From a bacterium (lineage in GTDB: Bacteria; Zhuqueibacterota; Zhuqueibacteria; Zhuqueibacterales; Zhuqueibacteraceae), in contig JBIOXB010000200.1 in the NCBI GenBank assembly GCA_044869275.1, positions 1-33,553 of the forward strand: DNA of 33,553 bases. The letters are read 5' to 3'. The notes beneath the pieces are model-generated. The model searched no databases, was not told the origin of the DNA, and saw nothing but the letters and a program-made list of their open reading frames with translations. A program made the position numbers and the translations under genes. Positions 3,909-22,718 of the stretch are shown here, in pieces (the first letter of the stretch is position 1; each line of letters opens with the position of its first letter).

Positions 3909-3917
3909 AGAAACCGT

Positions 3918-6490: not shown

Positions 6491-7572
6491 TTCAGCACTT
6501 CACTTAATTCCTCGTTCATTGCAGCCGGCGGCATCCCGGCGCGATGCGGACCGTGATCGACTTTGGCAAGCCGGCGCTGCGCTTTATCCGGCGCATCATC
6601 CATCCGCATCTGGCCGCATCCCCCCTCCACGGGTTCACCGATATTGGAATTCAGGAAGCCGACGGTGAATCCGCGCCGGCGCAGAGTCGCGGCAAAGGCG
6701 CGTACGCGCTGCGGCGAGGATTTGGCAAAATCGCGCTCGGCAATGCGATTATAGCTTTGCAGGGTCACGACGATCTTCAAATCGCCCAATAAGTCGGCCA
6801 GCTCATCGGCATGATCGATGGAGTCGTTGACGTTTTCCAACAAGAGATATTTGGCCTCGATGAACATCCACCGCGGCGCGCGGCGCAGCACGCGGACGAC
6901 GTCATCCAGAGGATATACCTTGGTAATCGGCACCAATTGCCGGCGCAGCTCATTATTCGGCGCATGAAAGGAAACGATCAAATTCACCGGCAGGCGCTCC
7001 GACATCATTTTCTCCATCGCCGGAATGACGCCGGAGGTATTGACGGTCGAGGGAATGTAGTGCCGCGCCAAAAGGTAGCGCACCGTTTCAGCCACGGTCT
7101 CGTAGTTCAGCAGCGGCTCACCGATGCCGGAGTAATAAATGCGCTGCAAGCGGGTCTTGGGCGGCAGGGATCTTCGCAACGTCTCAATTTGCGCCAGCAT
7201 TTCGTCGAGGGTTAAGTTTCGCAGAAAGGGTAAAAGTGAAGAAGCGCAAAAAGGACAATTGACGGCGCAGCCCACTTGCGTGGAAATACACACGTCGTAA
7301 TGAATTCGCCGGCGTACGAATGGCGCCTTTTCCACACCACGATCCTGTCCAACGCTACCGCCGGACTTGCGCAGATAATAGACCCACGCCGGAAACGTGG
7401 CAATCAACAACCCTTCAATGGTGGCACTGTCCTGCAGGCGAAAGGCATATTTACTTACGTGGCCAAAGGTGGCTCGGTCTTCAATCGTCGCAAAAGTGCC
7501 GAGCGTTCTTTGCACGCGTGTAGAGGGCAGGGTTTGGCCGCTGATTTCGTCCAAGCGCACACGCATTGCCAT
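6487..7572 (-). CDS. RlmN/Cfr-like (class A) radical SAM methyltransferase homologue, divergent
   Basis: CISTQVGCAVNCPFC, SGIGEPLLN (MGMGEP equivalent), VSFHAP...R..LVP, KYLLLENVND, C-terminal GGCGQ. Confidence 0.88.
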   Translation of the reverse strand: MAMRVRLDEISGQTLPSTRVQRTLGTFATIEDRATFGHVSKYAFRLQDSATIEGLLIATFPAWVYYLRKSGGSVGQDRGVEKAPFVRRRIHYDVCISTQVGCAVNCPFCASSLLPFLRNLTLDEMLAQIETLRRSLPPKTRLQRIYYSGIGEPLLNYETVAETVRYLLARHYIPSTVNTSGVIPAMEKMMSERLPVNLIVSFHAPNNELRRQLVPITKVYPLDDVVRVLRRAPRWMFIEAKYLLLENVNDSIDHADELADLLGDLKIVVTLQSYNRIAERDFAKSSPQRVRAFAATLRRRGFTVGFLNSNIGEPVEGGCGQMRMDDAPDKAQRRLAKVDHGPHRAGMPPAAMNEELSEVLK

Positions 7573-7596
7573 TCTCCAAAATTTATCAACATACGA

Positions 7597-8787
7597 TCAA
7601 GCAAGTTCTTGTCGCTGCCAAGCGCGTTGCAGCGCGAAAGCCGCCTTTTCCGCGCCGCCGGCACGGTGGTCGAAACAGCCGCAGCAGCGCGTACAGGCCG
7701 GGAGCAAACCGCCTTCCATTTTGAGCAATTGCCGAAAAGCGATCATGGCTTTGCCGTTCCATATTGCCCGAAGCGAAACCTCATTCAGATTGCCGGCGAC
7801 GGTATTGAAACAACGCCCGTGCGCGGGAATCACGTCGCCGTTGGTTTGAATCATCACCATGTTCCAAGGATCGCTGCAGAAATTGCCGGCCGCCGGTTCG
7901 CTCACCTTCTCGAAATAGCGCTGCAGTTCTTGTTCCGATTGCACGCCGGGGCGAAGGTTGAAAAAAATTCCCAGCGCGGCGGCTTTGGCGCGCGCGGCAT
8001 CGATCTGGCGCATGAGCGCCTTCAAATCAAAAGCATGCAAGTTGACTTGGCGCAAATTCGTCACCGTCGCGGGATAACGCCTGCCGAAACGCAGATTGTG
8101 CTGTGCCGCGCTGTCCGGATGAATAAAATTCAGCAAGGTCGCCACCACCTGCGTCGGCCGCACCGGCCGCAATTCTTCGAGCAGGTCAACCAAAGTCAAA
8201 TAGCTTTCTTCCGTGAAGACATACACCACGTTGAGCGTTGGGAGGCTTTGGCGTTGCCGCCCTTTAAGCTCGGCAACGGCGTGCAGACCTTGCATGAGCA
8301 GGTCAAACGATCGCTTCGAGCCGCGCACCTCGTTGTGAACTTCACGCGTGCCGTCCACTGAAACGAAAAGCTCATCCAAGCCCAGCTCGACCAGGGGCGC
8401 AGCCAGGCGCGGCAAGGTAAAACCGTTGGTAGTGAGGCTGCAATAAAATCCGGCGCGCTTGGCCTGTTCGACCAGGTCCACGACTTTGGGGTGAATGCCG
8501 GGCTCGGTGTAGCTGAGACTGAGGCGCGGACGGACGGGAAATGCGCCGGCATCTGCGAGAATGCGGTCAAAAAGATCGAGCGCCATGTTGCCATGGCTCT
8601 GCCCGATCAAGTTGCGATAAAAAATCGTGTCGCTGGTGCCGGTGCCGACGTCGCACATTTTGCAGTGGAGATTGCAGGTGTTATTCACCACCAGGACAAT
8701 CCAGCGCGGGCCGAGGCTATTTTTTCCCGTGGGGGAAAGATAAGCCAACCGGCGGCTGAAGCTTTCTAATCGCGGTGGCATTCTCAT
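7597..8787 (-). CDS. Radical SAM protein with SPASM/twitch domain
   Basis: CNLHCKMC, TTNG, VSVDG; C-terminal CSDPW...NGDVIPAHGRC...GNL...CTRCCGC. Confidence 0.9.
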   Translation of the reverse strand: MRMPPRLESFSRRLAYLSPTGKNSLGPRWIVLVVNNTCNLHCKMCDVGTGTSDTIFYRNLIGQSHGNMALDLFDRILADAGAFPVRPRLSLSYTEPGIHPKVVDLVEQAKRAGFYCSLTTNGFTLPRLAAPLVELGLDELFVSVDGTREVHNEVRGSKRSFDLLMQGLHAVAELKGRQRQSLPTLNVVYVFTEESYLTLVDLLEELRPVRPTQVVATLLNFIHPDSAAQHNLRFGRRYPATVTNLRQVNLHAFDLKALMRQIDAARAKAAALGIFFNLRPGVQSEQELQRYFEKVSEPAAGNFCSDPWNMVMIQTNGDVIPAHGRCFNTVAGNLNEVSLRAIWNGKAMIAFRQLLKMEGGLLPACTRCCGCFDHRAGGAEKAAFALQRAWQRQELA

Positions 8788-10640
8788 TGCTGATCGCCTG
8801 CCTGCAATTGCAATAGATGAAAAACCTCAAATAAATGCGGCTTGCTCTGGTGCGCCACCACCTCATAACCAAAACGATGAAATTTTTCGTGCAGCAAAGC
8901 CAGCGGCATATCCGAAGACATGATCAAAACAATCTTCCCGCGCGGTTGGAGAAAATTGGGGGCCTGTGCGAGGAAGCGCTCGATGGTTTCGTAATGATCG
9001 CCGGCATACCAAGCTGCCTCTTCCGGCCGCTGCACCGGGCCGGGGAAATAGGGAGGATTGAAAGCAATCCAATCAAATTTTTCTGCCGGGTCGAGCCGAG
9101 CGAAGAGATCGCTTTCCAAACCGCGCCAGCGGCCGTTCAAATCGTAGATCCGGGCATTTTCATTCGCCAACATCACCGCCGCGGGATTGACATCCACGGC
9201 CAAGACGTGCGCGCCGCGTTGGGCGGCCATGAGGCCGACAATACCCGAACCTGTGCCCATGTCCAGCACCTTTTCCTGCGCGGCCACCTGCGCGGCCAAA
9301 TAGCGGCCAAGAATTTTGCTGCTGAAAAAAAATTTCGGATGAAAGACCTTCACCTCGGTGCGCAGCTTCAGGCCATCAACCGCAGTATCCGCATTTTTTC
9401 GGCGTTGATGATTAATGACCGGCAACGCCAGGCGAAAGAACAGCGGCCGGATTTTCCGGCGAATCTTCATGCCCACGGGTATTTCAGTTTGATGCCACAA
9501 TGCTTTTGCCGAGTTCTTTTGCCTGGCTCCTAATTGTGCATAAAGCTCATCAAACCGGCGAACCGTATGTGCAATATCATACTGCGCGCGAATCTTTGCG
9601 GCAGCGGTGCGGGCCTGTTGCTGCAAAGAACGCAGGTTTTGCAAGCAGTGTTGCAAGCCGGCAAAAGCAGTTTGCGATGATTCCACAAAAACGATGGCGG
9701 CGCCCAGGCTTGCAAGCTCATCCGCGACACCCACCCGGGTGGCGAGCATGGGCAGCCCGGCAGCAGCCGCTTCGATCATCGCCATACCCTGCGCCTCGTG
9801 CGCGGAAAGAGAAATAAGTAAATCGAACTGAGACAACTGCTGTTTGAAGAGCTGCTCCGGCTGCCAGCCGGCCAATTCTACGGAATCGTTCAAACCCCGA
9901 TGCATAATTTCTTTGCGCAATGCAGTTTCCAACGGCCCGGTTCCGGCAATCGTCAAATGCCATGGCTTCGTCTCAAGCGCACTAACCATCTGCAGAATCT
10001 GAGAAATGTTTTTCATCGGTTGCAGGGCGGCCACGTTGAGCAAGCGCAGCTCAGCATTTGCCCCCCCATTTCTGCACGGCAGGGCTGCGGGATCAATGCC
10101 GAGGGGTGCGAGCACGATTCTCTCTTTTGCCGCCGGAACGAATGCGGCTACTTTTTCAAAATAATACTTCGACCCGGTGGTGACGGCGTCGGCATGCGCC
10201 AAACAGCGGCGCAAAATCCATCGCCAATGCGGTTTTGAGATCGCGCCATAGTCGAACGCGGGCAAATCGGCTATTTCACCGCCCAACATGGAGAGCACCA
10301 CCGGAGCTCCCGCCAGTTTGGCAAACACCGTGGCCGCAAGACTGCCGACGTGCCAAATGCCATGGGTGAGATCGAAAGGCCGCTCGCGGTGAAGGTGCCA
10401 AGCCTCGCGCAAGAGCGCAACCGTCTTGCCCGGAAAGTTGCCGGCTGTCAGCCTGCCGGTGGCGACGACATTGAGGCGATGAAAACGATAACTTTTCCCA
10501 GCCACCGGCTGCATGCCGCCCACGGCAAAAACCCAAATCTCATGCGACTCGGAAAGCCGGAGCAAAGTATCGATCACTGCCGGGGTATAGTCGCCGTCGA
10601 CTTTCTCGGGAAATCCGTTTGAAAAAAGTGCCACGCGCAT
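8784..10640 (-). CDS. Fusion: GT4 glycosyltransferase + HemK/PrmC-like class I SAM methyltransferase
   Basis: GT-B half with EAQGMAMIEAAAAG (EX7E). C-terminal VLDMGTGSG, VDVNP and NPPY motifs. One continuous 618-aa ORF. Confidence 0.87.
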   Translation of the reverse strand: MRVALFSNGFPEKVDGDYTPAVIDTLLRLSESHEIWVFAVGGMQPVAGKSYRFHRLNVVATGRLTAGNFPGKTVALLREAWHLHRERPFDLTHGIWHVGSLAATVFAKLAGAPVVLSMLGGEIADLPAFDYGAISKPHWRWILRRCLAHADAVTTGSKYYFEKVAAFVPAAKERIVLAPLGIDPAALPCRNGGANAELRLLNVAALQPMKNISQILQMVSALETKPWHLTIAGTGPLETALRKEIMHRGLNDSVELAGWQPEQLFKQQLSQFDLLISLSAHEAQGMAMIEAAAAGLPMLATRVGVADELASLGAAIVFVESSQTAFAGLQHCLQNLRSLQQQARTAAAKIRAQYDIAHTVRRFDELYAQLGARQKNSAKALWHQTEIPVGMKIRRKIRPLFFRLALPVINHQRRKNADTAVDGLKLRTEVKVFHPKFFFSSKILGRYLAAQVAAQEKVLDMGTGSGIVGLMAAQRGAHVLAVDVNPAAVMLANENARIYDLNGRWRGLESDLFARLDPAEKFDWIAFNPPYFPGPVQRPEEAAWYAGDHYETIERFLAQAPNFLQPRGKIVLIMSSDMPLALLHEKFHRFGYEVVAHQSKPHLFEVFHLLQLQAGDQQ

Positions 10641-10652
10641 CAGAGTGTGCCG

Positions 10653-11837
10653 TCAAGTCTTGTCATAAAGTGTCAACAACTTTTGCGCGAGGGCTGCATA
10701 CGAAAACTCCTGCTCAAAGCGGCGATGCACGCGCTCGCGTTGCGAGCAGGCTACGGACTTGGGCAGCTGCGAAAGAATGTGCTGCAAAGCACGAGCATCG
10801 CCCGGCGGAAACAAGAAACCACAACGACCATCGTCACAAAGCAGGCGAAAACTGGGAATGTCAGTGAGAATCGGAATCGCACCAGTTGAGATGGCTTCCA
10901 CCGCGGCGTAGCCATAAGCTTCATGGTGGCTGCCCTGCACAAAATAATCAATGGCGCGAAAAAAAGCTTCGAGCTGCGCATGCGGCACCCGGCCGCGCAA
11001 AAACACCCGTTGCTGCAGGATCGGATGCTTTGCAATCATGGCTTCACAAGCCGCGCGCAAATCATCCTTGATAAAATGCATATAAAGCCGCGCCCCGAGA
11101 TTTTCTGCAAAGTAACCCGTGCTGGCACGCAAAATGGTAAGGGGATCTTTGTTGTGATCCAGATGCGCCACCCAGCCGAAAATCGGCGCGCCCTCCATCT
11201 GCAATTGCCGGCGCAAACGGCAGCGCTCCGCCTCGCCAACCGGGGAGAAGCTTGAAGACGCCGCGAAAAGGATTTTGCATTTATCCGGTGCGAGCAGGTC
11301 GCGGCCAATCCACAAGTCACGCATGTTTGAGTCGCCAAAAATAACTTGACGAATCGCGGCAAGTGGTTTTTTATAAAGCTGTCTCTTCATGCCCAAAGCC
11401 GGCACGCCGCCGCCGTGATCTTGCACCACGCAATGGAGGCCGTGTTCTCGCGCCAACTCATTTAAAGCCCGCAGTGCCATCCACGAATTCAATCCGTGCT
11501 GATGCACCACCTCGGGGTTTTCAGCAGCAGCAGCACGAGCGACGCAGCGCGCTTGCTTCCAGCCGACATACTGCCGTCTTGAGCCAACTTTCAAAAACCT
11601 CGCTGTCCGGACGAATTTGATTTTAATCTCATCCTGGAAAAATGTCAGGCTTGCGCTGGACGGGGCAATCCAGGAAACCTGGAGACCCAATCTCTGCTGG
11701 GCACGCAGCAAGTGCGTGACTCCCGGAAATCGTTCTGCCAGCTCCTCCCATGAAACGAGGAGCGGCATTTCATGAAAGACGGTATGGCAAACTTTCATGC
11801 TCATGCGATGGCCGTTTAGTTTGCCAGAATGTGCCAC
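10653..11837 (-). CDS. GT4 glycosyltransferase
   Basis: EAYGYAAVEA (EX7E), TDIPSF, GFLFPPGD. GTG start preceded by GAGG. Confidence 0.88.
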   Translation of the reverse strand: MAHSGKLNGHRMSMKVCHTVFHEMPLLVSWEELAERFPGVTHLLRAQQRLGLQVSWIAPSSASLTFFQDEIKIKFVRTARFLKVGSRRQYVGWKQARCVARAAAAENPEVVHQHGLNSWMALRALNELAREHGLHCVVQDHGGGVPALGMKRQLYKKPLAAIRQVIFGDSNMRDLWIGRDLLAPDKCKILFAASSSFSPVGEAERCRLRRQLQMEGAPIFGWVAHLDHNKDPLTILRASTGYFAENLGARLYMHFIKDDLRAACEAMIAKHPILQQRVFLRGRVPHAQLEAFFRAIDYFVQGSHHEAYGYAAVEAISTGAIPILTDIPSFRLLCDDGRCGFLFPPGDARALQHILSQLPKSVACSQRERVHRRFEQEFSYAALAQKLLTLYDKT

Positions 11838-11847
11838 GGTTCTGACC

Positions 11848-13356
11848 TCAAGAACGGCCGCTCCACATATCCACGGCCTGGCGCCGGGTCTTTCGAGAGG
11901 TCAATAAAAAAAGCCTGTTCAAGATGCGCAGATCAAGAATGGTCTGATAGCGGCTCAGGCGCAAGTGCAAATGAGCAACCCGGTGCAGCAGACGCAAAAA
12001 GAGGTTGCGAGGAAACAGCTGGCGGAAACGGCGATGCAAGAAACTGGTGGCGTAGAAGGTCGTGATCGTAAAATTGTACAGCTTGCGCCGGTACTGCGGA
12101 GAGAGCCAGGCTTTGCCGTTGCCGCTGCGTTGATCGAGATGCGACCATTCGGCGATGCTGTTTGTGGTTTTGGAGGCGAACTCCTTGGCGCGATGAAAAG
12201 CCGGGGTGCTGTCATAAGCGGTGGTGATGTAGATCATCAGTTCGCTTTCAGGATTGAGGCGTCGCAGCTCGCGGCACAACGCTTCAGTGCGGCTGAAATT
12301 ATCCGGCGGTTCACCGGGATAGCCGAGGTTGAACGAGAACGTGGTTTTGATTTTGTGCCGGCCCAGTTTCTCAGCGGCGCGCAGAATATCATCCACCTTG
12401 TGATCGCGTTCCATCATTTGCAACACCGCCTCATGCCCGCTTTCGGCGCCGATGAACACCCAGCGCAACCCGCTGCGCGTCAGCAGTCCCAGCATGTCGT
12501 CGTCGTACTCGGCAATTTTATCCGGTCGCGCCTCGCCGCTCCAGAGAATTCCCAGCTTGGCATCGAGTAAAGCGCTCGCGATCTCATACGTGCGCTGGTC
12601 GTTCACGAAAAAGTTGTTGTCGTAAAACTCCACGCTTTGCGCGCCGGTATTTTCCAGCAAGAACCGAATGTCCCGCAAAACTCTTTCTGCCGGAAAGCCG
12701 CTCCAACGCTGCTCGTAGATTTGTGTGACCGTGCAAAAATTGCAGCGGAACGGGCATCCGATGCTGGAATGATAGGAAATGCTTCTCGAGGTGAGACTGT
12801 CAATCAAGAAGGACGAGAGTGGCACCAGATGATACGGGAATGCCGGAAAATCCTCGAGGTTGCGAAAGGCAGCGCCGCCGGGATTATGGATGGGAAGGCC
12901 GTTCTCCTTGCGCCAGATCCCCGGTGTCAGGGCAGCGCCATCCTGCGCCGCAAAACGATTGGCGAAATCGAGAAACGTCCATTCTCCCTGGCCGGTCACC
13001 ACGAAATCTGCGAGCTCGCTGGCAACCGTGGTTTCGGGATAGAGAGAGGGATGATATCCTCCCCACACCAAAGGAAGTCTTGGGAAATGCTGGCGGAGCA
13101 AGCGCGCCGCGCGCAGGGCAGATTCAATCTGAAAACCGGTAAAACAGGAAATGCCAAGGAGATCGGCTTGTGCCGCCGCCGCCAGCAGGCGTTGCGCATA
13201 ATGAGGCGTCGAAAACTCATCGAGAATTTCCACCTCATACCCCGCGGCCACCAGCGGTGCTGCCACCGCCAGACATGAATACGGCACGGTGCACGAATCA
13301 CCAGGAGTTGCCCGAGGATGTAGCAAGAGAATTTTTATGCGCCGAGGCAACATCAT
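11848..13356 (-). CDS. Cobalamin-binding radical SAM enzyme (class B-type)
   Basis: WGGYHPS, GQGE, SSIGCPFRCNFC, GAESG, GYPGE. Start moved to ATG 13356 (or 13353) after GAGG; the longer ORF extension looks non-coding. Confidence 0.9.
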   Translation of the reverse strand: MMLPRRIKILLLHPRATPGDSCTVPYSCLAVAAPLVAAGYEVEILDEFSTPHYAQRLLAAAAQADLLGISCFTGFQIESALRAARLLRQHFPRLPLVWGGYHPSLYPETTVASELADFVVTGQGEWTFLDFANRFAAQDGAALTPGIWRKENGLPIHNPGGAAFRNLEDFPAFPYHLVPLSSFLIDSLTSRSISYHSSIGCPFRCNFCTVTQIYEQRWSGFPAERVLRDIRFLLENTGAQSVEFYDNNFFVNDQRTYEIASALLDAKLGILWSGEARPDKIAEYDDDMLGLLTRSGLRWVFIGAESGHEAVLQMMERDHKVDDILRAAEKLGRHKIKTTFSFNLGYPGEPPDNFSRTEALCRELRRLNPESELMIYITTAYDSTPAFHRAKEFASKTTNSIAEWSHLDQRSGNGKAWLSPQYRRKLYNFTITTFYATSFLHRRFRQLFPRNLFLRLLHRVAHLHLRLSRYQTILDLRILNRLFLLTSRKTRRQAVDMWSGRS

Positions 13357-13560
13357 AATTCCTCGTCGAATGGCAAGAAAGAGCAAAAAGCGCATCCCGA
13401 TGCACCGGGACGGAGACGCAAAGGGAACGCAAAGTGCGCCAAAAATCAAGCCATCGTTCACTTGACCCTTAGCAGGTTTTTCTTTGCGGCGCCTTTGCGA
13501 ATTCGTCCCAGCCTTGCGGGATAAATGCTTCGGTATTACCTATACAGAGAAAGATCGAGA

Positions 13561-14601
13561 CTAATTGTTTTGCGCCCCGCGATTGATCCAGGCGGCGATG
13601 GAATCGGTTTCCGTCTGGCTCAAGGGCGCGCCAATCGGCGGCATGCCCCGGCCCACGCTGTTATCGGCAATGACCTTCAAATACAAAACGCTATTGTTGG
13701 CATTGCCTGGCGCGACCCGCAGGCGGCCGAATTGGGCAGAGTTCACGCCCACCAAAGTCGTAAAGGAGGTGCCGGCCGCGAGCGACATCGGCGCGCCGCC
13801 ACCCGGATGGCATCCCGCGTTCACACATTTGGGTGTGAAAATGTTCGCTTGAATGCTGGACAGCGTTGCCTGCAGCGGTGGTGGCGCGATTACGGTGACT
13901 CCCAAGGTGTCACTTAGGCCATTCGCTGTGGCCGTAATCGTTGCTGAACCAATACTCACGCCGGCGACCAGGCCGCTATTCATATCGACGGTTGCAACAT
14001 TCGGGGCGGAGCTGGACCAGGTAAATATCGCGGTGATCCCATTATTGTTCGCGTCCAGAGCCTGCGCATTGAGATCGAGATTGGCCCCGATTTGTATGGT
14101 GGTGTTGTTCGGTCTTGTAATGCGAACGCTGTTGACGATACCGGGCGTGGTGTCTGGAAGCGCGCCCGCGTTGATCCAGTCTCGGATGGCGTTGATCTCG
14201 GTCGTGCTCATGGGTCCAAGGCCCGCCGGCATGCGCGCCGAAGGCCCACCTACGGCCGGATCACCCAGAACCTTCAAATAGAGCGAACTGTTCATCGCGT
14301 CGTTCGGTTTGACGCGCAGCATGCGCGGGTTGCCATAGGCCGAACTGGCGTAAACCAAACTACTGTAGGTGAGCCCGCTCTGGAGCGAAAACGGCGCGAT
14401 ACCGGGGGTGATGCCGGCGGTGTGACAGGCCGCCACGGCGCATTTCAAGTTGAAAATGTTAGCCTGCAGGCTGGCCAGCGTCGGCTGCACGACTACCGGC
14501 GGCGGTGCGCTGGGCGAATCTTGCTTGCAAGCAGCCATGAGAAAAACCAAACCGAGCAACAACACTCCTTCTGCACATTGGTTGAAAAACCGTGTGGGCA
14601 T
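13561..14601 (-). CDS. Lipoprotein with two CX4CH cytochrome c-like domains flanking an Ig-like (Big_2) domain
   Basis: Lipobox-like MAAC. CAVAACH and CVNAGCH are each followed by an MP motif and WI..GA. Central Big_2 pattern WSSSAPNVATVD...GLV.GVS.G.ATITAT. Confidence 0.8.
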   Translation of the reverse strand: MPTRFFNQCAEGVLLLGLVFLMAACKQDSPSAPPPVVVQPTLASLQANIFNLKCAVAACHTAGITPGIAPFSLQSGLTYSSLVYASSAYGNPRMLRVKPNDAMNSSLYLKVLGDPAVGGPSARMPAGLGPMSTTEINAIRDWINAGALPDTTPGIVNSVRITRPNNTTIQIGANLDLNAQALDANNNGITAIFTWSSSAPNVATVDMNSGLVAGVSIGSATITATANGLSDTLGVTVIAPPPLQATLSSIQANIFTPKCVNAGCHPGGGAPMSLAAGTSFTTLVGVNSAQFGRLRVAPGNANNSVLYLKVIADNSVGRGMPPIGAPLSQTETDSIAAWINRGAQNN

Positions 14602-14679
14602 AACTTGTCTCCTTTGACTGAAAAATTCGCCGTCATGGCAAAAAATGAATAAAACTTAATGCACCAGCTCATACAACCA

Positions 14680-14708
14680 AGATTAAAATCGCCCCTGCCC
14701 ACACGCAA
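14680..14708 (-). promoter_or_regulatory. Weak putative sigma70 promoter for the 14601 lipoprotein gene
   Basis: TTGCGT-17 nt-TAATCT on the minus strand in the intergenic region. Confidence 0.3.
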
Positions 14709-14722
14709 TCATCGTGTTGCTT

Positions 14723-15316
14723 TCATTTTAGCGTCAACAAATAATCCGCCATGGCCTCGAGCTCCTCTTTGGGCAGAGCGCCATACTTGGGCATGAGCGA
14801 ATCTTTGACGAACGCCTGCGGATCGACGAAGTGGTCGACCAGCCATTTTTTATCGTGTTTGGCGCCCACACCTTTGAGATTCGGCCCGGCGCCTTCTTTG
14901 TTACCGATGCCGTTGAGCACGTGACAATTGCGGCACTGTTCGCGCACCATGGCGAAGCCGGCCGTAACGGCGTTAGCGGCGGCGGCATCAGTTTTCTCGC
15001 GCGCCTGGATATAAGCCACCAGGGCCGCAACTTCTTCGCCCATGGTTCGTTTCTGCCGGCGCGGAGAAGTATCTTTGCGCAAAACATTTTCCAATTTCAA
15101 TGAGTCGACGTGCGCCGCTAATTTTGCCGAATCGGCCGGTGCTTTCAGCGGCGTGAATTGCTTCGCGCCTTGATTGTGGCAGTCACCGCATTTTTTTAGG
15201 TTGTAAATCTGCTTGCCGCCGAGCGCGGCAATATCCGGCGTTTGCGCCCGCAGGCCAGCCGCCATCACTATCAATCCGAAAAGGACAATTCCGCAAAGAC
15301 GCGAGCTCCTGATCAT
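14723..15316 (-). CDS. Periplasmic diheme cytochrome c
   Basis: Signal peptide, CGDCH and CRNCH. C-terminal GPNL..VG...W...H..DP....DSLMP resembles cbb3-II/NorC-type cytochrome domains. Confidence 0.85.
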   Translation of the reverse strand: MIRSSRLCGIVLFGLIVMAAGLRAQTPDIAALGGKQIYNLKKCGDCHNQGAKQFTPLKAPADSAKLAAHVDSLKLENVLRKDTSPRRQKRTMGEEVAALVAYIQAREKTDAAAANAVTAGFAMVREQCRNCHVLNGIGNKEGAGPNLKGVGAKHDKKWLVDHFVDPQAFVKDSLMPKYGALPKEELEAMADYLLTLK

Positions 15317-15358
15317 GACTCTCAGCCTTTCTTTCGTGGTTTAGATTTTCACATCCGT

Positions 15359-15802
15359 TCAATTGTTCTGCGCGCCGTTGTTGATCCACGTTTGAATCGC
15401 GCTCATTTCTGCTGCGCTCAGGGCTTGCATGCCTTGTGGCATTTGCCCTCCCAGCGTGTTGCCGGAGACTTTCAAATACAATACACTGTTATTGGCGTTT
15501 CCGGGCTGGACGCGCAATCTTGGCCCGTAGCCGCTGGACGTCACTCCCGTGCCTCCCGCTCCGACGAGAGTATTGTAGGACTGCCCTGTTTGCAGTGATA
15601 ATTGCCCGGTGGGGTTGCCGCCAGTATGGCAACCCGGTATCGCACACTTCGGTGTGAAAATATTCGTTTGAATGCTCGACAATGTGGGTTGCACTTGTAC
15701 CGGCGGTGCGGTGATTGGCGTTTGATGCTCGCACGCCACGAAGACAAGACTGATCAACAACAACAGGCTTCCACTCACCGCCGCAAGCGTTCTTACTTTC
15801 AT
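15359..15802 (-). CDS. Lipoprotein with one CX4CH cytochrome c-like domain
   Basis: ATG 15802 follows AGGAG. Lipobox FVAC, CAIPGCH, GQMP, WINNGAQNN. Paralogous to both domains of 13561..14601. Confidence 0.8.
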   Translation of the reverse strand: MKVRTLAAVSGSLLLLISLVFVACEHQTPITAPPVQVQPTLSSIQTNIFTPKCAIPGCHTGGNPTGQLSLQTGQSYNTLVGAGGTGVTSSGYGPRLRVQPGNANNSVLYLKVSGNTLGGQMPQGMQALSAAEMSAIQTWINNGAQNN

Positions 15803-15867
15803 GATCTTCTCCTGTAATGAAACCGGCTTCATCCGCCCAGATCGCGGTGTTTCCGGACAGATACTAT

Positions 15868-16016
15868 CTTGACAATGTTAAGTTAAATTCGTGCCCTCTC
15901 AATTTGTCATCCCGACGCTTCGGGATCTTCCCTAGGTTTGTGTGCAAGCCTCGTGGGAAGATTCCTACAGAATGACAAAAACTAGGGGCTTTTTTAGCCA
16001 ACTTAACATTGTCAAG
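15868..16016. mobile_element. MITE-like element, 149 bp, perfect 17-bp terminal inverted repeats
   Basis: CTTGACAATGTTAAGTT (15868-15884) and its exact reverse complement (16000-16016). CTAT lies directly outside both ends (15864-15867, 16017-16020). No coding capacity. Confidence 0.65.
15903..15979. repeat. REP-like nested hairpin inside the MITE-like element
   Basis: Stems TTTGTCAT/ATGACAAA, ATCCCGA-cgct-TCGGGAT and ATCTTCCC/GGGAAGAT. The 20-mer 15907-15926 recurs inverted at 33528-33547. Confidence 0.65.
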
Positions 16017-17330
16017 CTATTTAACGAAAGGATAATCCAAAATCCGATAGATATTGAAACCGATACGATAATTGCCGTCGCCAAAGTCGAGGTCGCCCCC
16101 GCTCATGTATTGGTTGGTGGTATTGCCGCCGGAGTTGGCGATGAACCAGTGAAACACGTGGCCGCCGGCTTTGATCTCGAGGCCGGCAACAAATGTATCG
16201 TAAAATACCATCTGGTTGCCTTGCACCTGCATGCCGCCGATGACATTTGCCGTCGCCTCTCCCGCGACGACGGGCGTCACCTCCGCGAAGAAGGCATAAC
16301 TTTGATTGAATGCAAATTTTCCGCCCACCCCCATCGTGACCAGCGGGTCCTCGTTCTGCACGTTGAAGTTGCCGTTCAGCAGCACCCCGGGCACGAAGGC
16401 CAGCGAGACGCGGTCCACCACTTTTTTGGTGATGGGCAGTTGCGCGAAATAGGCAAAGCGCTCGCTGCTCGTCCGGCTCAAAGTATTATTGGGATTTGCC
16501 GGATCCTGCAGGCCGTCGATGGTCGTCCAGTCGACGCCGGCATAAATCGCCGCCGATAAGGGCATGGAGCCGTCGGTCTTCTCACGCAAGAAGCGCCACT
16601 TCGCGCCAAACTCGAAAGTGGCATTGATGCCGGTGCGCTCCAAGTTCAAAGTCAGGCTGTTGGCTACGGGAAAGGCGAATTGGGCCATCACGTATGCGCC
16701 GCCGTCGATGCCCCACAAGGTTTCAAAAGTGCTTTTGCCGGCGTTGCTGCGAAAGCGATGCGCGATGCGGTACGTAAAAGCGCCCGGTTCCAGCGTTTCC
16801 GCAGTGGGAAGATTGGCCAGCGACCAGCCGTAGAAGGGTTGTGCATATTTCATCTGCGGCGCTTCGACGCGCACGTTCGCGGGCATGGCGTTGATCCATT
16901 TTTCCAGCGTGGCGATTTCGCCGGATGAAAGCGGCTGTGCACCACGCGGCATACGATCGCCCTTGATGCCGGAAGAGCCTTTGACCTTTTTGATGAGATA
17001 ACTATTGTCCGCGTCTCCCGGCTTCACCAGCATCATTCTGGGAAAGTCCGTGCTTTTCGCATTCACCAATTCGGAGACGAACATTTCTTCGCTCAGGTTG
17101 AGGCCCTTGGGCGCGTTCACGCCGGTGTGGCAACCTGCAAAAGCGCATTTGCTGTCAAAGATGTCGAGCACTTGATTTTGCAGCTCGTCGGGCGCCGCGG
17201 CGGGCGGCTTTACAAACTCGAAAGGCGAAGAGGCGTTTCGGGATTTCTGATCCCCTGCCGGCGCGCGGCCCGAAAACAGCAGCACGAACACGATCATTCC
17301 CAGTCGGGACAGCCCTTGACCCAATCGCAT
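16017..17330 (-). CDS. Fusion: CX4CH cytochrome c-like domain + DUF5777-like outer-membrane beta-barrel
   Basis: ATG 17330 follows GAGG; signal peptide; CAFAGCH...RMP...WI. Then LPTAETL...FTYRIAHRF...WGIDG...EIKAGGHVF...GFNIYR, recalled as DUF5777 motifs, with alternating amphipathic strands. Confidence 0.78.
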   Translation of the reverse strand: MRLGQGLSRLGMIVFVLLFSGRAPAGDQKSRNASSPFEFVKPPAAAPDELQNQVLDIFDSKCAFAGCHTGVNAPKGLNLSEEMFVSELVNAKSTDFPRMMLVKPGDADNSYLIKKVKGSSGIKGDRMPRGAQPLSSGEIATLEKWINAMPANVRVEAPQMKYAQPFYGWSLANLPTAETLEPGAFTYRIAHRFRSNAGKSTFETLWGIDGGAYVMAQFAFPVANSLTLNLERTGINATFEFGAKWRFLREKTDGSMPLSAAIYAGVDWTTIDGLQDPANPNNTLSRTSSERFAYFAQLPITKKVVDRVSLAFVPGVLLNGNFNVQNEDPLVTMGVGGKFAFNQSYAFFAEVTPVVAGEATANVIGGMQVQGNQMVFYDTFVAGLEIKAGGHVFHWFIANSGGNTTNQYMSGGDLDFGDGNYRIGFNIYRILDYPFVK

Positions 17331-17494: not shown

Positions 17495-19657
17495 TCAGAC
17501 CGCGGCAAAGCCGTCGTGTACATTTTGCTTGTCGAGCAGGTGCGGCTTTTCCAATTCTTGCAGCCGCGCGGCCACGCTGCGCTGCACTCGGAAGCGGTGA
17601 TTGTTCGTAAAAAGCTTGATCTGTCCGGGCGTAGCCGCAACGGCTTGCGGTGGCAAATGCTGCGTTAAATGGGCAATGCGGCGGCGATAGTGCTCGCAAA
17701 TAAAATCTTCCAGGCGGTCAAACAGTGGGCGGCGCAAAAATCCTTCCAGTGCAACGCGCCACCGCGCCCGCGCCAGGGAGAGATCGCGAGTTTGAATCTC
17801 CTCGGTCAAGCGGCTTTCCATGTTGCTTTGCGGTAGATGACGCCCGCACCAGCCGTTCGCGCGAACAAACTGGCGAAAACTTTCGGCTCCGCTTTCAGGC
17901 TGCAAAAACGCAATCTGATGCGCCACGAAATCATCCTGATCTGCGCACAACAAGTGCTCGGTGTCCACCAGACAATTCAAACACAAGCGCCGGCGCTTGC
18001 CGGCCAGTTTCAGCAAGATGGCCAAGCCGGTATAAACCGTCCACAACCGGCCCTTTTCAACGATGAGGAACAGATCGATATCATCGCTGCGTGTGCAATT
18101 TTGAAACGCCATGGCACCGGAGAGGGCGGCGCAACGCACGAATGGAAAGCTCCTCACCAGGCGCAACCACCTCCGGTTTTTCTGCAGCAATGCCTGGCTC
18201 CACTCGCGCCGTTGTTGGCGCAGCGCCACGATCGGTGCGCGGCCCGCCAAAAAGTAATGCCCTTCCGCTTTCATGATCTCGCCGCCGTCTTCCAGCCCGC
18301 GCAGAGCCTGGCGGACCTCCGCGTACACAGCCTGGACGCCGAACAAACCGTAGTGAATTTCACTGCAAGTCAACGGATAATCGAATAAATCTGCATACGC
18401 CAGTGTGCGCCGCACCGCGTGCAGCAATTCGGCCGAAGCGCCACCGGCCACCAGGGTCGCGCGGAATTCAGAATTCGGCGACGCCGCCGAGGTCCCGCCG
18501 GTTTTGGCGTGATACGGCGTGCGGCGGGCGTGGCTCTCGTAGATTTCGCAAAGCTGTTCCGCGGTCCTTCGCCAGGAGAATGCGCGTGCGCGTGCGCGTG
18601 CATAGGCGCTCAACTCGCGCCGCAGTTTTTGATCGCACAACAAGTGTTCCATCTTGTGCGCCCAAGCCGCCGGCGTCTCTTCACACAGCAAGGCAGGATG
18701 CGCCGCCAATTCCCGCAGTGAAGAATTATCCGCGGCCAGTGCCGCCACACCGCCCGCCATGGCCTCCAGCAGCGGAAATCCGAAGCCTTCATAATATGAA
18801 GGTAACGCGAAGAGCGCTGCGCCTTGATACAACGCCGGTAAATCTTCTTCCGGCACATAACCCAGAATACGCACGCGTTGTTGCAGACCGAGTTGTGCGA
18901 TGGTGGCGCGCACTTCCGCACTGCCGTTGTCAGGTTGCCCGGCCAGAGCAAGCATGCAATTATCATGGCCGCGCTGGCCGAGAATGTGAAGGGCACGCAC
19001 GAGCAAATTCAAATTTTTGCGCTTTTCGAAAGTGCCGACGAAAAGCAAGTAGGGTGCGTCGAGGTGATGCGCCTGGAGCACGCGCGCAATCTGCTCGGCA
19101 GAAAGCGAGGTGAAAAATTTTTCATCAACACCCGAAGGAATCACGGCCACCGGCGGTTGGGCGCTGCCGTTTTTGCGCTGCGCCAGCAACCTCTTCAAGT
19201 CGCCGCCCGTGGCTTCGGACACCGCGACCAGGTGCCGGGCCGTATGCAATGCCCGCGTGATCGCCTGGCGAAAATAAACGCGTTTGCCCCAGGCATAAAA
19301 ATGCGGATACAGAATGACGCCCAGGTCGTGAAACGTGGCGACCGTCGCCAGACTTCGTGTAAAGGCCGGCAGCGTGTAGTGCATGCCGTGCCAAACCTCG
19401 AGTTTGAGTTGGCGCGCATGCTGGCCCGCGGCAAAATGCTGCCACGCCAGGCGCAGCGGCCGCGAAAAATTGGGCAGCGGCACCAATTGCATGTTTGCCG
19501 GCAGACGCTCAAACTTGCCGGCATGTTGTGCTTTGATAAAAATAAAATACTCGTTGTGTCCATCGACGCTGGCCAAGCCCCGCACCACACCGTGAATGTA
19601 ACGGCCCGCGCCGGCCAAAGCTGAAGGCAGACAAGTCGCGTCAATTCCTATGCGCAC
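17495..19657 (-). CDS. Fusion: GT4 glycosyltransferase + nucleotidyltransferase-like (Pol-beta fold) domain
   Basis: GTG start after GAGG (VRIGID). GT4 motifs EKRKN and EGFGFPLLEAMA. C-terminal YADLFDYPLT..EI and LSGAMAFQNCTRSDDIDLFLIV (hG[S/A]-x-DxD). Confidence 0.82.
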   Translation of the reverse strand: MRIGIDATCLPSALAGAGRYIHGVVRGLASVDGHNEYFIFIKAQHAGKFERLPANMQLVPLPNFSRPLRLAWQHFAAGQHARQLKLEVWHGMHYTLPAFTRSLATVATFHDLGVILYPHFYAWGKRVYFRQAITRALHTARHLVAVSEATGGDLKRLLAQRKNGSAQPPVAVIPSGVDEKFFTSLSAEQIARVLQAHHLDAPYLLFVGTFEKRKNLNLLVRALHILGQRGHDNCMLALAGQPDNGSAEVRATIAQLGLQQRVRILGYVPEEDLPALYQGAALFALPSYYEGFGFPLLEAMAGGVAALAADNSSLRELAAHPALLCEETPAAWAHKMEHLLCDQKLRRELSAYARARARAFSWRRTAEQLCEIYESHARRTPYHAKTGGTSAASPNSEFRATLVAGGASAELLHAVRRTLAYADLFDYPLTCSEIHYGLFGVQAVYAEVRQALRGLEDGGEIMKAEGHYFLAGRAPIVALRQQRREWSQALLQKNRRWLRLVRSFPFVRCAALSGAMAFQNCTRSDDIDLFLIVEKGRLWTVYTGLAILLKLAGKRRRLCLNCLVDTEHLLCADQDDFVAHQIAFLQPESGAESFRQFVRANGWCGRHLPQSNMESRLTEEIQTRDLSLARARWRVALEGFLRRPLFDRLEDFICEHYRRRIAHLTQHLPPQAVAATPGQIKLFTNNHRFRVQRSVAARLQELEKPHLLDKQNVHDGFAAV

Positions 19658-19720
19658 GTTTTCCTCGCACAACTGGATAAGTTGCAAGGCAGATTGAAAT
19701 GCGAATGCTCATGCAAAAGA

Positions 19721-20812
19721 TCATAAAAACAAAGCCGCTTCAGCGACAACACCAGGGCCGAAGGCGAGCGCGACACAAGGTGTTTCCGCACCGCGCGCCT
19801 GCAATTCCTGAAGGATGAACAAAACCGTCGGCGAAGACATGTTGCCGTGCTCGCGCAACACCGCGCGCGAGACTGCCAATGCTTGATCGTTTAACGCCAG
19901 GCTGCGCCCCACCGCACCAATGATGCGCGGCCCACCGGGATGAATCGCCCAGCTCTTGATGTCGTTCATCTGCAAATGATTTTGCGCGAGCCAGTCGGCG
20001 AGCCACACGCGCAGATGGGCGTCGATCAATTCGGGCAGCGTGGGCGACAGCGTCATGCCGAAGGCCTGGTCCCCGATGCGCCAGGTCATCGCCTGGCCGG
20101 ATTGGGGAATGACGAACGAGCCACAATCCGCCACTTGCCAGTGCTGCTTCTGGCGCTGGCGGCCGGGCTGGGCGACCACCGCGGCCGCACCGTCGGCAAA
20201 CAAAGCGTTGGAGACAATTTGTTCCGGATGCCAGCCGTATTGATAATGCAGGCTGCACAACTCCACACAGCAGATCAAAATCGTCGCGCTGGCATCTCGA
20301 TGCGCGAACGCCAGAGCCGTGCGCAAGCCATTGATGGCGCCGTGGCATCCCATGAAGCCGATGTGCGTGCGTGCGACGCTGGGCACCAGCGACAAATCGC
20401 GAATCAGGGCGTAATCGACGCCCGGCGCAAAAAAGCCCGTGCACGACACCGTGATCACATGCGTGATCTCTCTGCGCGCAATGCCCGCGTGGTCCACGGC
20501 CTTCTGTGCCGCCGCCAGTGCGAGCTTCGGCGCTTCTTCTTCATAGCGCTGCATGCGTATGCCCATGCCCGGCCCGCGATCCTCGGGGCTGCGCATGGGC
20601 GGATAAAAAGATTGATGGATAACGCCTTGCGCATCTTGCTCCAGGATCACGCTGCCGCGCCGCGCGATGCCGCTCATGCGATACAAGCGATGAAAAACGC
20701 GTCGCTGCTCGTCCGTGGTGCAGGTGTAGGATTCTGCGAGCACGGCGGCGCGCTCGTGCGGAATGGCAAGCTCAGGCGAAGCTGTGCCGATGCTGAGGAG
20801 ACTGAGGCTCAA
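19721..20812 (-). CDS. Type III polyketide synthase (chalcone synthase-like)
   Basis: Catalytic triad motifs GFMGCHG (Cys), IHPGG (His) and GNMSS (Asn); also VELCSLH, ALFADGAAA, AFGPG. Confidence 0.95.
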   Translation of the reverse strand: MSLSLLSIGTASPELAIPHERAAVLAESYTCTTDEQRRVFHRLYRMSGIARRGSVILEQDAQGVIHQSFYPPMRSPEDRGPGMGIRMQRYEEEAPKLALAAAQKAVDHAGIARREITHVITVSCTGFFAPGVDYALIRDLSLVPSVARTHIGFMGCHGAINGLRTALAFAHRDASATILICCVELCSLHYQYGWHPEQIVSNALFADGAAAVVAQPGRQRQKQHWQVADCGSFVIPQSGQAMTWRIGDQAFGMTLSPTLPELIDAHLRVWLADWLAQNHLQMNDIKSWAIHPGGPRIIGAVGRSLALNDQALAVSRAVLREHGNMSSPTVLFILQELQARGAETPCVALAFGPGVVAEAALFL

Positions 20813-22017
20813 ATTGGGCTCGTGATTGCGGCGCTGCGCAAGGCAGCCGGTTCTTTGCTTCCCGGTTCCAGATGCAGAAAATTTACCAGCGGTTCCAATG
20901 GCAACCAGTGTTTTTCCACCAGACGGAAGATGGTTTCAATCAAAGCGGGATGGCGCAAGGCGCGCGCAATCACGCGGCAAAGCGTTTGGCGCCGGCCAAC
21001 CGTTTGGCGATAGACGCGCGTCCATTCGACTTCGAGCTGTGGCGACCAATGCGCCACGCCGCGCAGCGCCAACGGGATGAGCGCTGCGGCAGAATGCATC
21101 GCCCAGGCGAGGCCTTCGCCGGTAAAAGGCTCGACGTAACCCGTGGCATCACCGAGCGCAAAAAAACGGCGGTCACTCATTTTTGCCGGGCGCCGCGTCA
21201 GCTCGGGCGTGCCTTTCCACGGCAGATCGTGCAAATCTGTGGGAGCCGGTAGTCCGGCTTCGCGCAGCACCTCTCCCGCAGCTTGAGCCAGCGTTCCGGC
21301 TTTCTTGACAAAACTTTTGGCGAACGCTGCGGCGATCGCGAGTCGTTCGTTTTCCACGCGCACCAAACCGACATAGCCGAAACGACTATACGCCATGTAA
21401 ATCGTTCCGGGTTGATAAAAGGAAGGCGGTGCGGCGGTCATCGCGCCGGCGCCAAGATAGGAATCCGGCTCCGGCGGCGCCGCCAGCTCCGGAGCATTTC
21501 GGCGTAATGTTCCGGCCAGGCCATCTGCGCCAATGACTACTTTCGCGCGAATTTCGTATTCGTCATACCGCTGCTGCAGTAATACCCGTCGCTGCCTGTC
21601 GCCCGCGCCTCCCAGAACCGCCTGGCATTCCGGCAAGAAAAAAGCGCCGGCTGTGATTGCAGCCTGGACCAAAGCCGCATCAAAAGCAGTGCGCGAAACC
21701 GCTCTTCCCATGGGAAGGGCGAGGCTCACACGATGGTTTTGATGCGCAAGCGTAAAGCTGTGCAGATGTTTTGCTCCGGCTTGATCGAACAAGTGTCCCA
21801 ATCCGCACGCCTGCAATGCCGCCACCGCCCGCGCGCTGAAACAACAACCACAAACTTTGTACCGCGGAAAGCGCTGCTTTTCAATCAGAAGAACTTGCAG
21901 GCCGGAAGCCGCGAGCTGACGCGCCGCGAATGCACCTGCTGGGCCCGCGCCCACGACGGCGGCATCCCAGATTCGGTTAACGGTGCTTGCGGCGGCAATC
22001 GTTCCGGCAAGGGTCAT
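20809..22017 (-). CDS. FAD-dependent oxidoreductase (monooxygenase / geranylgeranyl-reductase-like)
   Basis: VVGAGPAG, FPRYKVCG, GADG, GDATGYVEPFTGEG. ATG 22017 overlaps the methyltransferase stop (ATGA). Confidence 0.9.
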   Translation of the reverse strand: MTLAGTIAAASTVNRIWDAAVVGAGPAGAFAARQLAASGLQVLLIEKQRFPRYKVCGCCFSARAVAALQACGLGHLFDQAGAKHLHSFTLAHQNHRVSLALPMGRAVSRTAFDAALVQAAITAGAFFLPECQAVLGGAGDRQRRVLLQQRYDEYEIRAKVVIGADGLAGTLRRNAPELAAPPEPDSYLGAGAMTAAPPSFYQPGTIYMAYSRFGYVGLVRVENERLAIAAAFAKSFVKKAGTLAQAAGEVLREAGLPAPTDLHDLPWKGTPELTRRPAKMSDRRFFALGDATGYVEPFTGEGLAWAMHSAAALIPLALRGVAHWSPQLEVEWTRVYRQTVGRRQTLCRVIARALRHPALIETIFRLVEKHWLPLEPLVNFLHLEPGSKEPAALRSAAITSPI

Positions 22018-22718
22018 GGCTTTTCCCAGCACAACATCATGCGCGCGGGCAAGTGCGTGCATATCGAAAAATTCTTCAATCCCGCAGTTTCTGCGAGAGC
22101 GGCAAGCTCGGCCGCCGTAAAGGCGTTTTTCATGGAAAGCACGGCGTCCGCATGCACGATCGGCGAACGGGACAGGAGCCGGCTGCCGATCAGGACCAGC
22201 ACGTAGTTGAACATGCTGCGTTTCAGATCATTCACCAGCACCAGATGTTGCGCCGCCTCCGACATGCGGCTGAGCAAAGTGATCGCGTCACGTTCCTGCA
22301 AATGATGCAGAAACAGGGAACACATCACGACGTCATATCCTGCGGGCAATGGCTCGTTGAGCACGTCTTGGGCGAAAAACTCGATGGCGAGTCCGGCGGT
22401 GATGGCGCGGCGGCGTGCATATTCCAAAGAACGGGCATTACGGTCGCAGGCATGCATGCTCAAAGCAAGTCCGCCATTTGCGGCTTTCTTCATGAGCGCC
22501 AACGCAATGTCGCCGCCGCCACAAGCCAGATCCAAGACCCGGAGGCCTCGGAGCGATTGCGATCTTGCCAGCCTCGCGATCTCCGCCCACAAAATGCCCG
22601 CACCGCGGCTGATGCAATTCAAACGCTGCAAACCGTCCAGCGCGTTGCGCACTTCGATTTCATTCAGGCCGGGATCGTCCAGCAGCTCGGCCTGCCACTC
22701 GCGTTCGCGCAACCACAT
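22014..22718 (-). CDS. Class I SAM-dependent methyltransferase
   Basis: ELLDDP N-terminus, VLDLACGGGD, SLFLHH, NDLKRS. Confidence 0.9.
   Translation of the reverse strand: MWLREREWQAELLDDPGLNEIEVRNALDGLQRLNCISRGAGILWAEIARLARSQSLRGLRVLDLACGGGDIALALMKKAANGGLALSMHACDRNARSLEYARRRAITAGLAIEFFAQDVLNEPLPAGYDVVMCSLFLHHLQERDAITLLSRMSEAAQHLVLVNDLKRSMFNYVLVLIGSRLLSRSPIVHADAVLSMKNAFTAAELAALAETAGLKNFSICTHLPARMMLCWEKP

Follow-up and report, generated by a model that had tools for sequence, protein, structure and literature searches.

To our knowledge, the known routes by which electrons cross the outer membrane are the large porin-multiheme conduits and Cyc2. In Acidithiobacillus, Cyc2 has a cupredoxin and a bc complex as partners. 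Conduits of the Mtr type are described as a 26-stranded barrel that holds a decaheme cytochrome. In this study, we analysed a stretch of 33,553 nucleotides from a bacterium of the Zhuqueibacteraceae (GenBank assembly GCA_044869275.1, contig JBIOXB010000200.1, forward strand), hereafter the window, and investigated a cassette of four adjacent minus-strand genes, A, B, C and D, at window positions 13561-17330. Named homologues of the cassette proteins come mostly from candidate division KSB1, which makes that phylum the probable source of the window. The cassette encodes a predicted small outer-membrane barrel together with predicted c-type cytochromes, and the module is neither a porin-multiheme conduit nor Cyc2. 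We propose, with a probability of about 52%, that it is a conserved unit that would form the outer-membrane end of a quinone-linked electron chain, each of its CX4CH domains carrying a predicted heme c with His/Met ligation.

Gene A (16017..17330, 437 aa; all features of the cassette lie on the minus strand) encodes a signal peptide, a CX4CH class I cytochrome c domain, a Pro-rich linker and a 12-stranded barrel of the DUF5777 family (PF19089, 16041..16835). Its heme motif CAFAGCH (C62, C67 and H68) is at 17127..17147, and the predicted distal ligand Met127 is at 16950-16952. Gene B (15359..15832) encodes a predicted lipoprotein (lipobox Cys34) with one CX4CH domain, whose motif CAIPGCH lies at 15626..15646 and whose predicted distal ligand is Met131. 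Gene C (14723..15316) encodes a soluble exported diheme cytochrome c with CXXCH motifs at 15190-15176 and 14935-14921. Gene D (13561..14601) encodes another predicted lipoprotein (lipobox Cys25), in which two CX4CH domains (CAVAACH at 14442-14422 and CVNAGCH at 13827-13807) flank a Big_2 Ig-like domain (E 2.7e-14).

A preliminary description of this DNA had reported four copies of a CX4CH domain in three genes, and these copies proved real. The domains align at 40-60% identity to the first copy, with C, C, H, NS, K, MP, E and WIN invariant. Two or more CX4CH motifs occurred in 0 of 20,000 shuffles of the three CX4CH proteins, and the motif was absent from the other 19 of the 22 window genes tested. 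CX4CH and the downstream MP were kept in all 66 B homologues. Among the 120 A homologues listed, 113 have one CX4CH and two have CXXCH at the same place; three lack the region, and two are two-domain proteins with no barrel match. CXXCH replaced CX4CH at this site in the A orthologues P0175 and P0179, and also in loci L093 and L097. A profile built from the four window domains retrieved 14,517 clusters at E 0.001. The best 150 hits included 147 proteins with 367 domain copies, comprising 198 CX4CH, 144 CXXCH, 9 CX3CH, 1 CX6CH and 15 copies with no motif. MP followed the motif in 195/198 CX4CH copies and 142/144 CXXCH copies, and both spacings were present within one protein in 33 of the 147. 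Since the two spacings interchange at one site with the distal Met kept, the motif itself is no novelty. CX4CH is also present in Desulfovibrio cytochrome c3. The spacing is listed among described heme motifs (PMC11492766), and some heme surveys already count it (PMC9900912).

The profile survey also showed that the domain is PSCyt1-like, and neither new nor rare. PSCyt1 (PF07635) matched at E 1e-5 or better in 41 of the 73 related proteins scanned with Pfam (73 of the 147), and the barrel fusions P0179 and L093 carry it. Two of the window domains scored 14.5 bits against the curated cut-off of 22 bits and the other two gave no hit, so that by sequence score they are PSCyt1-like and not PSCyt1 members. 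In the Pfam scan, the related domain was often repeated or placed among Ig-like, PKD, fn3 or CHRD domains. We also found CX4CH among CXXCH motifs in three other multiheme proteins of this genome (C28:13520-16270, C142:5268-7382 and C172:12283-15207), which shows that the spacing is not confined to the cassette. A distant further copy of the domain lies in a diheme protein of the same genome (C36:6642-7823, E 1.4e-10), and the window domains weakly match the SO2930 diheme family. A protein of 3575 aa (P0215) has seven copies in which the Cys-Cys-His motif is missing and MP is kept, a heme-less offshoot.

We then examined the fold of the domain. The B profile aligned CXXCH and MP with cytochrome c6 (E 0.01) and FoxE (E 0.035). 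The B model (predicted local distance difference test score, pLDDT, 87.8) gave FoxE as its best fold match (Z 7.3, root-mean-square deviation 3.4 over 95 residues, 25% identity), followed by PccH (Z 4.3); the top four, FoxE, PccH, YhjA and cytochrome c, had modest scores (Z 7.3-3.3). Foldseek returned nothing under E 0.001 for the B model, its top hit being hydrazine synthase (E 0.06). FoxE-type hemes are described as His/Met-ligated in a model of a homologue, in which the chain on the side of the other domain supplies the Met ligands (PMC10654088). For heme attachment, this genome encodes CcmF and a CcmE with CxxxY, a CcmE type that occurs in Desulfovibrio desulfuricans (PMC9084895), and the cassette proteins carry export signals. 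The interchange with CXXCH, the conserved MP, the alignment to FoxE and cytochrome c6 and the predicted FoxE-like fold together make it very likely that the CX4CH sites bind heme c with His/Met ligation, as had been proposed.

The partner proteins were then compared with their homologues. The lipobox Cys of B was conserved in 65/66 homologues, which supports its predicted lipoprotein status. A Cys-x-His at the lipid anchor was present in 58/66 B homologues, in 27/43 lipoprotein domains of a KSB1-centred set and in 0/11 of a set from the phylum of the Rhodothermales genome G167; among 76 lipobox-like open reading frames of this genome, used as a control, none had it. This Cys-x-His is a candidate source of a sixth ligand, and its uneven occurrence in the last two sets of homologues led us to reject a universal role. 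In C, heme 1 is predicted to be bis-His (His69 invariant in 25/25) and heme 2 His/Met (Met175 in 23/25). Among the loci fetched, a single further genome had two-domain D, and judging by these sequences D is a rare accessory. Thus the six heme motifs that had been noted are present in the cassette, whereas the six-heme set is not conserved.

We next analysed the barrel of A. It matched DUF5777 at E 1.6e-48 and 165.5 bits, against a cut-off of 23.1, over model positions 1-246 of 247; the domain at 16041..16835 scored 168 bits. The A model (pLDDT 93.7, predicted TM-score 0.85) had 12 long strands, and its fold matches were KdgM (Z 16.7) and FapF (16.5), then GalP, NanC, the COG4313 channel and LpxR (14.3). 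These best matches are all 12-stranded, and autotransporter barrels matched too. A sequence search of the PDB with the A alignment gave nothing at E under 0.27. The FapF match, as given by its range ends, starts at FapF residue 88, the region where the FapF plug leaves towards the periplasm according to the published description (PMC5557850). This is a weak indication that the pore of A is self-plugged and that its heme domain is periplasmic. A cytochrome would not fit inside the modelled barrel, which is probably closed by the barrel's own N-terminal segment, and the heme domain probably lies at the periplasmic face. The label of porin-cytochrome conduit, in its usual sense, is therefore a poor fit, and the module is unlike MtrCAB, as the preliminary description had stated: the barrel has 12 strands, matches only DUF5777 in Pfam, and no cassette protein has more than two heme motifs.

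To identify conserved positions, we aligned 67 distant barrels; the 36 with computed identity were 21-35% identical to A. His191, Phe193, Gly207, His391 and Phe393 were invariant in 67/67, and Phe425 and Arg429 (66/67) and Arg232 (62/67) were nearly so. From the hydrophobic alternation in the model, His191, His391, Arg232 and Arg429 are predicted to be in lipid-facing register on strands 1, 11, 3 and 12, respectively, and Phe193, Phe393 and Phe425 share this register. His191 (16758..16760) lies near the predicted extracellular end and His391 (16158..16160) at the predicted periplasmic end. In a toy calculation on an idealised barrel with assumed registers, the two histidines were 12-18 Å apart in depth and, depending on the sense of tilt, either stacked at that distance or 23-28 Å apart; the girdle pattern favours the stacked arrangement. 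No Ser or Cys near either His was conserved in at least 70% of the distant barrels, and the lack of a conserved Ser argues against a hydrolase triad. The conserved lipid-facing patch of two His, two Arg and aromatics would resemble a heme b or quinone site, and an oligomer or partner interface is a plainer alternative. Tentatively, DUF5777 may be an outer-membrane beta-barrel "cytochrome b", in which His191 and His391, on the lipid-facing side of strands 1, 12 and 11, would bind non-covalent heme, one or two molecules, with a conserved Arg close to each and Phe425 between. A second barrel, or else the Cys-x-His of B, might complete the site, and electrons would cross along the barrel exterior instead of through a porin-held multiheme wire. 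One locus (L157) has a single 606-aa frame with two tandem DUF5777 barrels and a YceI gene on each side.

To assess whether the cassette is conserved, we compared 61 loci from this phylum, namely the window itself and two sets of 20 and 40 regions, picked from the best matches rather than from all; several of these loci are cut by contig ends. There were 40 fused and 21 unfused barrels. B was next to the barrel in 26/40 fused loci and C was present in 23/40, and a cytochrome domain was nearby in 13/21 unfused loci, confirming that the genes co-occur. A Rieske gene was found in 9/40 fused loci (one at a contig end) and a cytochrome b gene in 7/40; a cupredoxin was upstream in 13/40, a decaheme cytochrome occurred near a second A paralogue in 4/40, and YceI was present in 1/40. 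The unfused loci had YceI in 15/21 and Rieske in 4/21. Pfam confirmed these neighbours as Rieske, cytochrome b fused to diheme c, cupredoxin and YceI. The complete order A-B-C-Rieske-cytochrome b was present in L125, L129, L130, L140 and L047. A, B and C are thus a conserved gene unit in this phylum. Gene order was kept across two phyla, and the pair of fusion and B recurred in Rhodothermales and Balneolaceae records. Envelope electron transfer, which had been suggested earlier, is the likeliest role, and a Rieske/cytochrome b complex lies in the same gene run of relatives.

The cupredoxin-like lipoprotein directly upstream of the fusion (L053:5371-5733 and 12 relatives) had His-Cys-His in 11/13 and an axial Met in none, and the ligands were lost in two; the window locus lacks this gene. 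A second A paralogue (L074, L077, L079, L080, L082 and L085) followed a cyclic nucleotide (cNMP)-binding/4Fe-4S protein and a decaheme cytochrome, with a Ser/Thr kinase in 5/6. This genome also has the cNMP-binding/4Fe-4S protein and decaheme (C125 and C213), and no second barrel was found there.

We then surveyed the spread of the barrel. DUF5777 was present in 78/167 genomes of this phylum, in 53/121 genomes sampled from the phylum of G167 and in 0/14 controls, counts in which related genomes are not independent. A CX2-4CH protein lay within 1.5 kb of the barrel in 24/30 barrel loci of the G167 phylum. CXXCH versions of the fusion occurred in Aminicenantes records, and in Acidobacteriota (L100-L107) the N-terminal CXXCH domains fused to DUF5777 barrels were of two further kinds. 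One of these, an unrelated monoheme, also occurs as a free protein directly after unfused KSB1 barrels, with a tail labelled FlgD/type IX secretion system (T9SS)-type from similarity to another protein. The other kind matches a Reeler-like CXCH protein in L108. SprA was found in 3/4 KSB1 genomes tested and not in the acidobacterial genome. The repeated fusion to unrelated heme domains suggests that the barrel works with c-type heme, and the probable secretion of the monoheme partner hints that hemes flank the membrane on either side.

We also looked for heme-copper oxidases. A strong match was present in 43/43 genomes with the fused form (hand count), and at a looser limit 93/167 genomes of this phylum had one. 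In the G167 phylum, 53/53 barrel-positive genomes had an oxidase match, but so did 112/121 overall, and no match was found in the unfused-barrel KSB1 genomes G107, G109-G112, G121 and G124. A strict tie of the family to aerobic respiration was therefore rejected.

In the mechanism that we favour, whose carrier order, sidedness, cofactor, direction and substrate we infer from the observed genes, motifs and gene neighbours and from the predicted folds, quinol would be oxidised by a Rieske/cytochrome b complex, which is dedicated and adjacent in some relatives. This genome has several other pairs of Rieske and cytochrome b, and a different bc-type complex would take that place here. Electrons would then pass to periplasmic C and on to B or D and the heme domain of A. 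Since the barrel is too narrow for a cytochrome and probably self-plugged, the final transfer would run over a redox site formed around His191 and His391 on the wall that faces the lipid. A non-covalent heme b is the favoured cofactor there, and a quinone or a metal is possible. With outward flow, the electrons would reach a high-potential surface acceptor such as chelated Fe(III), Cu(II) or an oxidised organic compound. Our modest preference for outward over inward flow comes from the presence of a quinol-oxidising complex in the gene run, among whose genes we recognised no oxidase.

Several observations weigh against this mechanism. His/Met class I hemes usually have a high potential, which limits the outward acceptors and suits inward flow equally well. 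B was not directly downstream in 14/40 fused loci and C was missing in 17/40 (some cut by contig ends). The dedicated cytochrome b-diheme type (59-67% identity) was present in just 3/41 genomes and absent from all 19 genomes of this family, which have only paralogues of 36-46% identity, and no cupredoxin match was found in this genome. The orientation of the histidines was deduced from the in/out alternation of residues close to the ends of strands, a region in which a bulge can disrupt the register, and the FoxE match of B, at Z 7.3, is below the level that the tool calls distinctive.

Other explanations account for parts of the same evidence. The cassette could be a Cyc2-like oxidase that arose by convergence, in which a reduced solute (Fe2+, Mn2+ or similar) enters a gated pore and is oxidised at the periplasmic heme of A, and electrons run inward via B, C and cupredoxin to a heme-copper oxidase, with the bc complex working uphill. 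The architecture is the same, a monoheme domain fused to a barrel (PMC8406198), and the nearest solved fold of the heme domain is FoxE, a putative Fe(II) oxidase. The cupredoxins upstream of the fusion, mostly with His-Cys-His and without an axial Met, the conserved polar residues in lumen register (Arg192, Glu350 and Arg422) and the oxidase match in every fused-form genome fit such a pathway as well. However, the barrel has 12 strands rather than 16, AXPXFAR was found in 0/120 homologues, and the most invariant residues are in outward register, whereas the barrel of Cyc2 is described as poorly conserved (PMC8406198). Moreover, we recognised no oxidase gene next to the barrel in any examined locus, though no profile search for oxidases was made there, unfused barrels occur in genomes with no oxidase match, and a barrel found in 53/121 genomes of the G167 phylum seems too common for iron oxidisers alone. 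We therefore regard an oxidase of this kind as unlikely, though it is the strongest of the competing explanations. Somewhat more doubtful is an outer-membrane lipid or quinone redox enzyme, whose histidines would bind a quinone or catalytic metal acting on membrane lipids, in oxidised-lipid repair or modification, while the cytochromes just supply or remove electrons. YceI, which binds isoprenoids, stands beside most unfused barrels (15/21) but beside just one of the 40 fused ones. OMPLA and PagL provide a precedent for an outward catalytic His, and the distant barrels have no conserved Ser or Cys for a hydrolase triad. LpxR was the top Foldseek hit of A (E 1.8e-6), but in the Z ranking (14.3) five other 12-stranded barrels came ahead of it. 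The cassette lies, in this family, within a glycosyltransferase/radical S-adenosylmethionine (SAM) cluster; a glycosyltransferase was beside the barrel in just 10/57 loci, so this radical SAM neighbourhood is lineage-specific.

A redox sensor, in which the cytochromes would tell a signalling chain how oxidised the envelope or an outside solute is and would carry no bulk current, appears improbable. The second A paralogue does follow a cNMP-binding/4Fe-4S protein and a decaheme in six loci, with a Ser/Thr kinase between them in five, and the heme domain is promiscuous, often repeated among Ig-like domains. Loci of the A-B-C type, however, had no signalling gene, and a dedicated Rieske/cytochrome b complex better suits bulk electron transfer. 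Finally, the CX4C pairs might be disulfides or metal sites and the genes a chance cluster of non-heme envelope proteins, in keeping with window domains that score 14.5 bits against the PSCyt1 cut-off of 22 and with the 15 of 367 related copies that have no motif. The free interchange with CXXCH, the invariant His and Met, the predicted class I cytochrome fold and a gene order conserved across two phyla make this very improbable.

The surroundings of the cassette were also inspected. The ATG start of A gives 437 aa; a longer TTG frame would overlap the upstream gene, and most homologues have about 400-450 aa. B probably starts at a later Met, giving 147 aa. Between A and B, outside the module, lies a repeat of about 155 bp (15865..16019, no strand assigned) with 20-bp terminal inverted repeats, resembling a miniature inverted-repeat transposable element (MITE), with 24 genome matches of at least 130 nt among 88 hits. 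Scans for promoters (5 vs 2.5 in shuffles) and terminators (10 vs 7.0) were both near shuffle levels. On both sides of the cassette (2508-13461 and 17495-22718, minus strand) are six radical SAM genes (three B12-binding, two SPASM and one RlmN-like), glycosyltransferases, one of them fused to a methyltransferase and one of 730 aa whose C-terminal half has no assignment, and genes for a type III polyketide synthase, a flavin oxidoreductase and a methyltransferase. This cluster is partly kept around the cassette in this family and possibly represents an unusual lipid or aromatic polyketide pathway; a tie to the cassette was set aside, as the cluster is not kept beside the barrel in most loci. 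A gene at 1581-2378 (minus strand) encodes a lysozyme-like protein with a peptidoglycan-binding domain and a weak glycoside hydrolase 19 match.

We searched the literature on the barrel, YceI, PSCyt1 and KSB1 and found no description of the cassette or module, and no paper naming DUF5777 was found in a coverage that leaves out most subscription journals. The main texts on this phylum (PMC11683472 and PMC10732223), in the portions covered, mention aerobic respiration and generic iron genes and not the module; the supplementary tables of PMC10732223 list KSB1 iron-cycling genes and may bear on prior annotation. The covered portions of PMC13741234, PMC3884852 and bioRxiv 10.64898/2026.05.27.727921 contain nothing specific to it. 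The CX4CH motif is ordinary, and the module is of interest for its fused small barrel, its link to a bc-type complex and its histidine pair. Counts based on CXXCH only miss the module, with 4/6 predicted hemes of the cassette overlooked, and the barrel family occurs in close to half of the genomes sampled from two phyla. If the module is indeed a surface redox terminal, many heterotrophic bacteria of the Fibrobacterota-Chlorobiota-Bacteroidota (FCB) group would couple respiration to metals or organics outside the cell in a way that has gone unrecognised. With its two invariant histidines, the fused form can be tested with one protein and two mutations, and the barrel has carriers in culture, such as Emticicia oligotrophica DSM 17448.

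Compared with known systems, the heme domain has its nearest solved fold in FoxE (Rhodobacter ferrooxidans SW2, PDB 5MAB), but FoxE is a soluble CXXCH diheme protein with FoxY and FoxZ and no barrel. PSCyt1, the Planctomycete cytochrome c domain, differs from the CX4CH-spaced window domains, which fall under its cut-off; in the literature searched, as far as the sources covered it, no tested function of this family was found. The barrel of A shares its fold with KdgM/NanC, FapF, the COG4313 channel and LpxR (Z 14-17), but these are 6-15% identical and none is linked to cytochromes. Hydrolases of the OMPLA/PagL type have a conserved His-Ser-acid triad on the outer wall, whereas the invariant His of the A barrel are accompanied by no conserved Ser in the distant barrels. 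The DUF5777-YceI-cytochrome c cluster of the Bacteroidota, as in E. oligotrophica (EMTOL_RS21070-21055), has the same barrel family and the same histidines, with Rieske, YceI and a c-type cytochrome beside the barrel and ccsA nearby; no description of this cluster was found in the literature searched. There the barrel is unfused and accompanied by YceI, whereas here it is fused and accompanied by B and C, with a Rieske/cytochrome b complex instead of YceI in relatives.

The porin-cytochrome conduits (MtrCAB, MtoAB, PioAB and those of Geobacter) likewise encode an outer-membrane barrel together with periplasmic and lipoprotein cytochromes. The cassette differs from them in its 12-stranded barrel and its mono- or diheme domains, and no match to MtrB_PioB was found in this genome, which is 94% complete. 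The closest architectural parallel of A is Cyc2. The cupredoxin and bc complex found as partners in relatives of the cassette echo those of Acidithiobacillus, and the heme is predicted on the periplasmic side in both. Like A, Cyc2 has a signal peptide and an N-terminal single c-type heme domain fused to an outer-membrane barrel (PMC8406198). Searches of Pfam, NCBIfam and the PDB gave no sequence relationship between the two. A differs from Cyc2 in its smaller strand number, in the lack of AXPXFAR in its family, in a full 100-residue class I domain with CX4CH, and in a highly conserved barrel with two invariant histidines.

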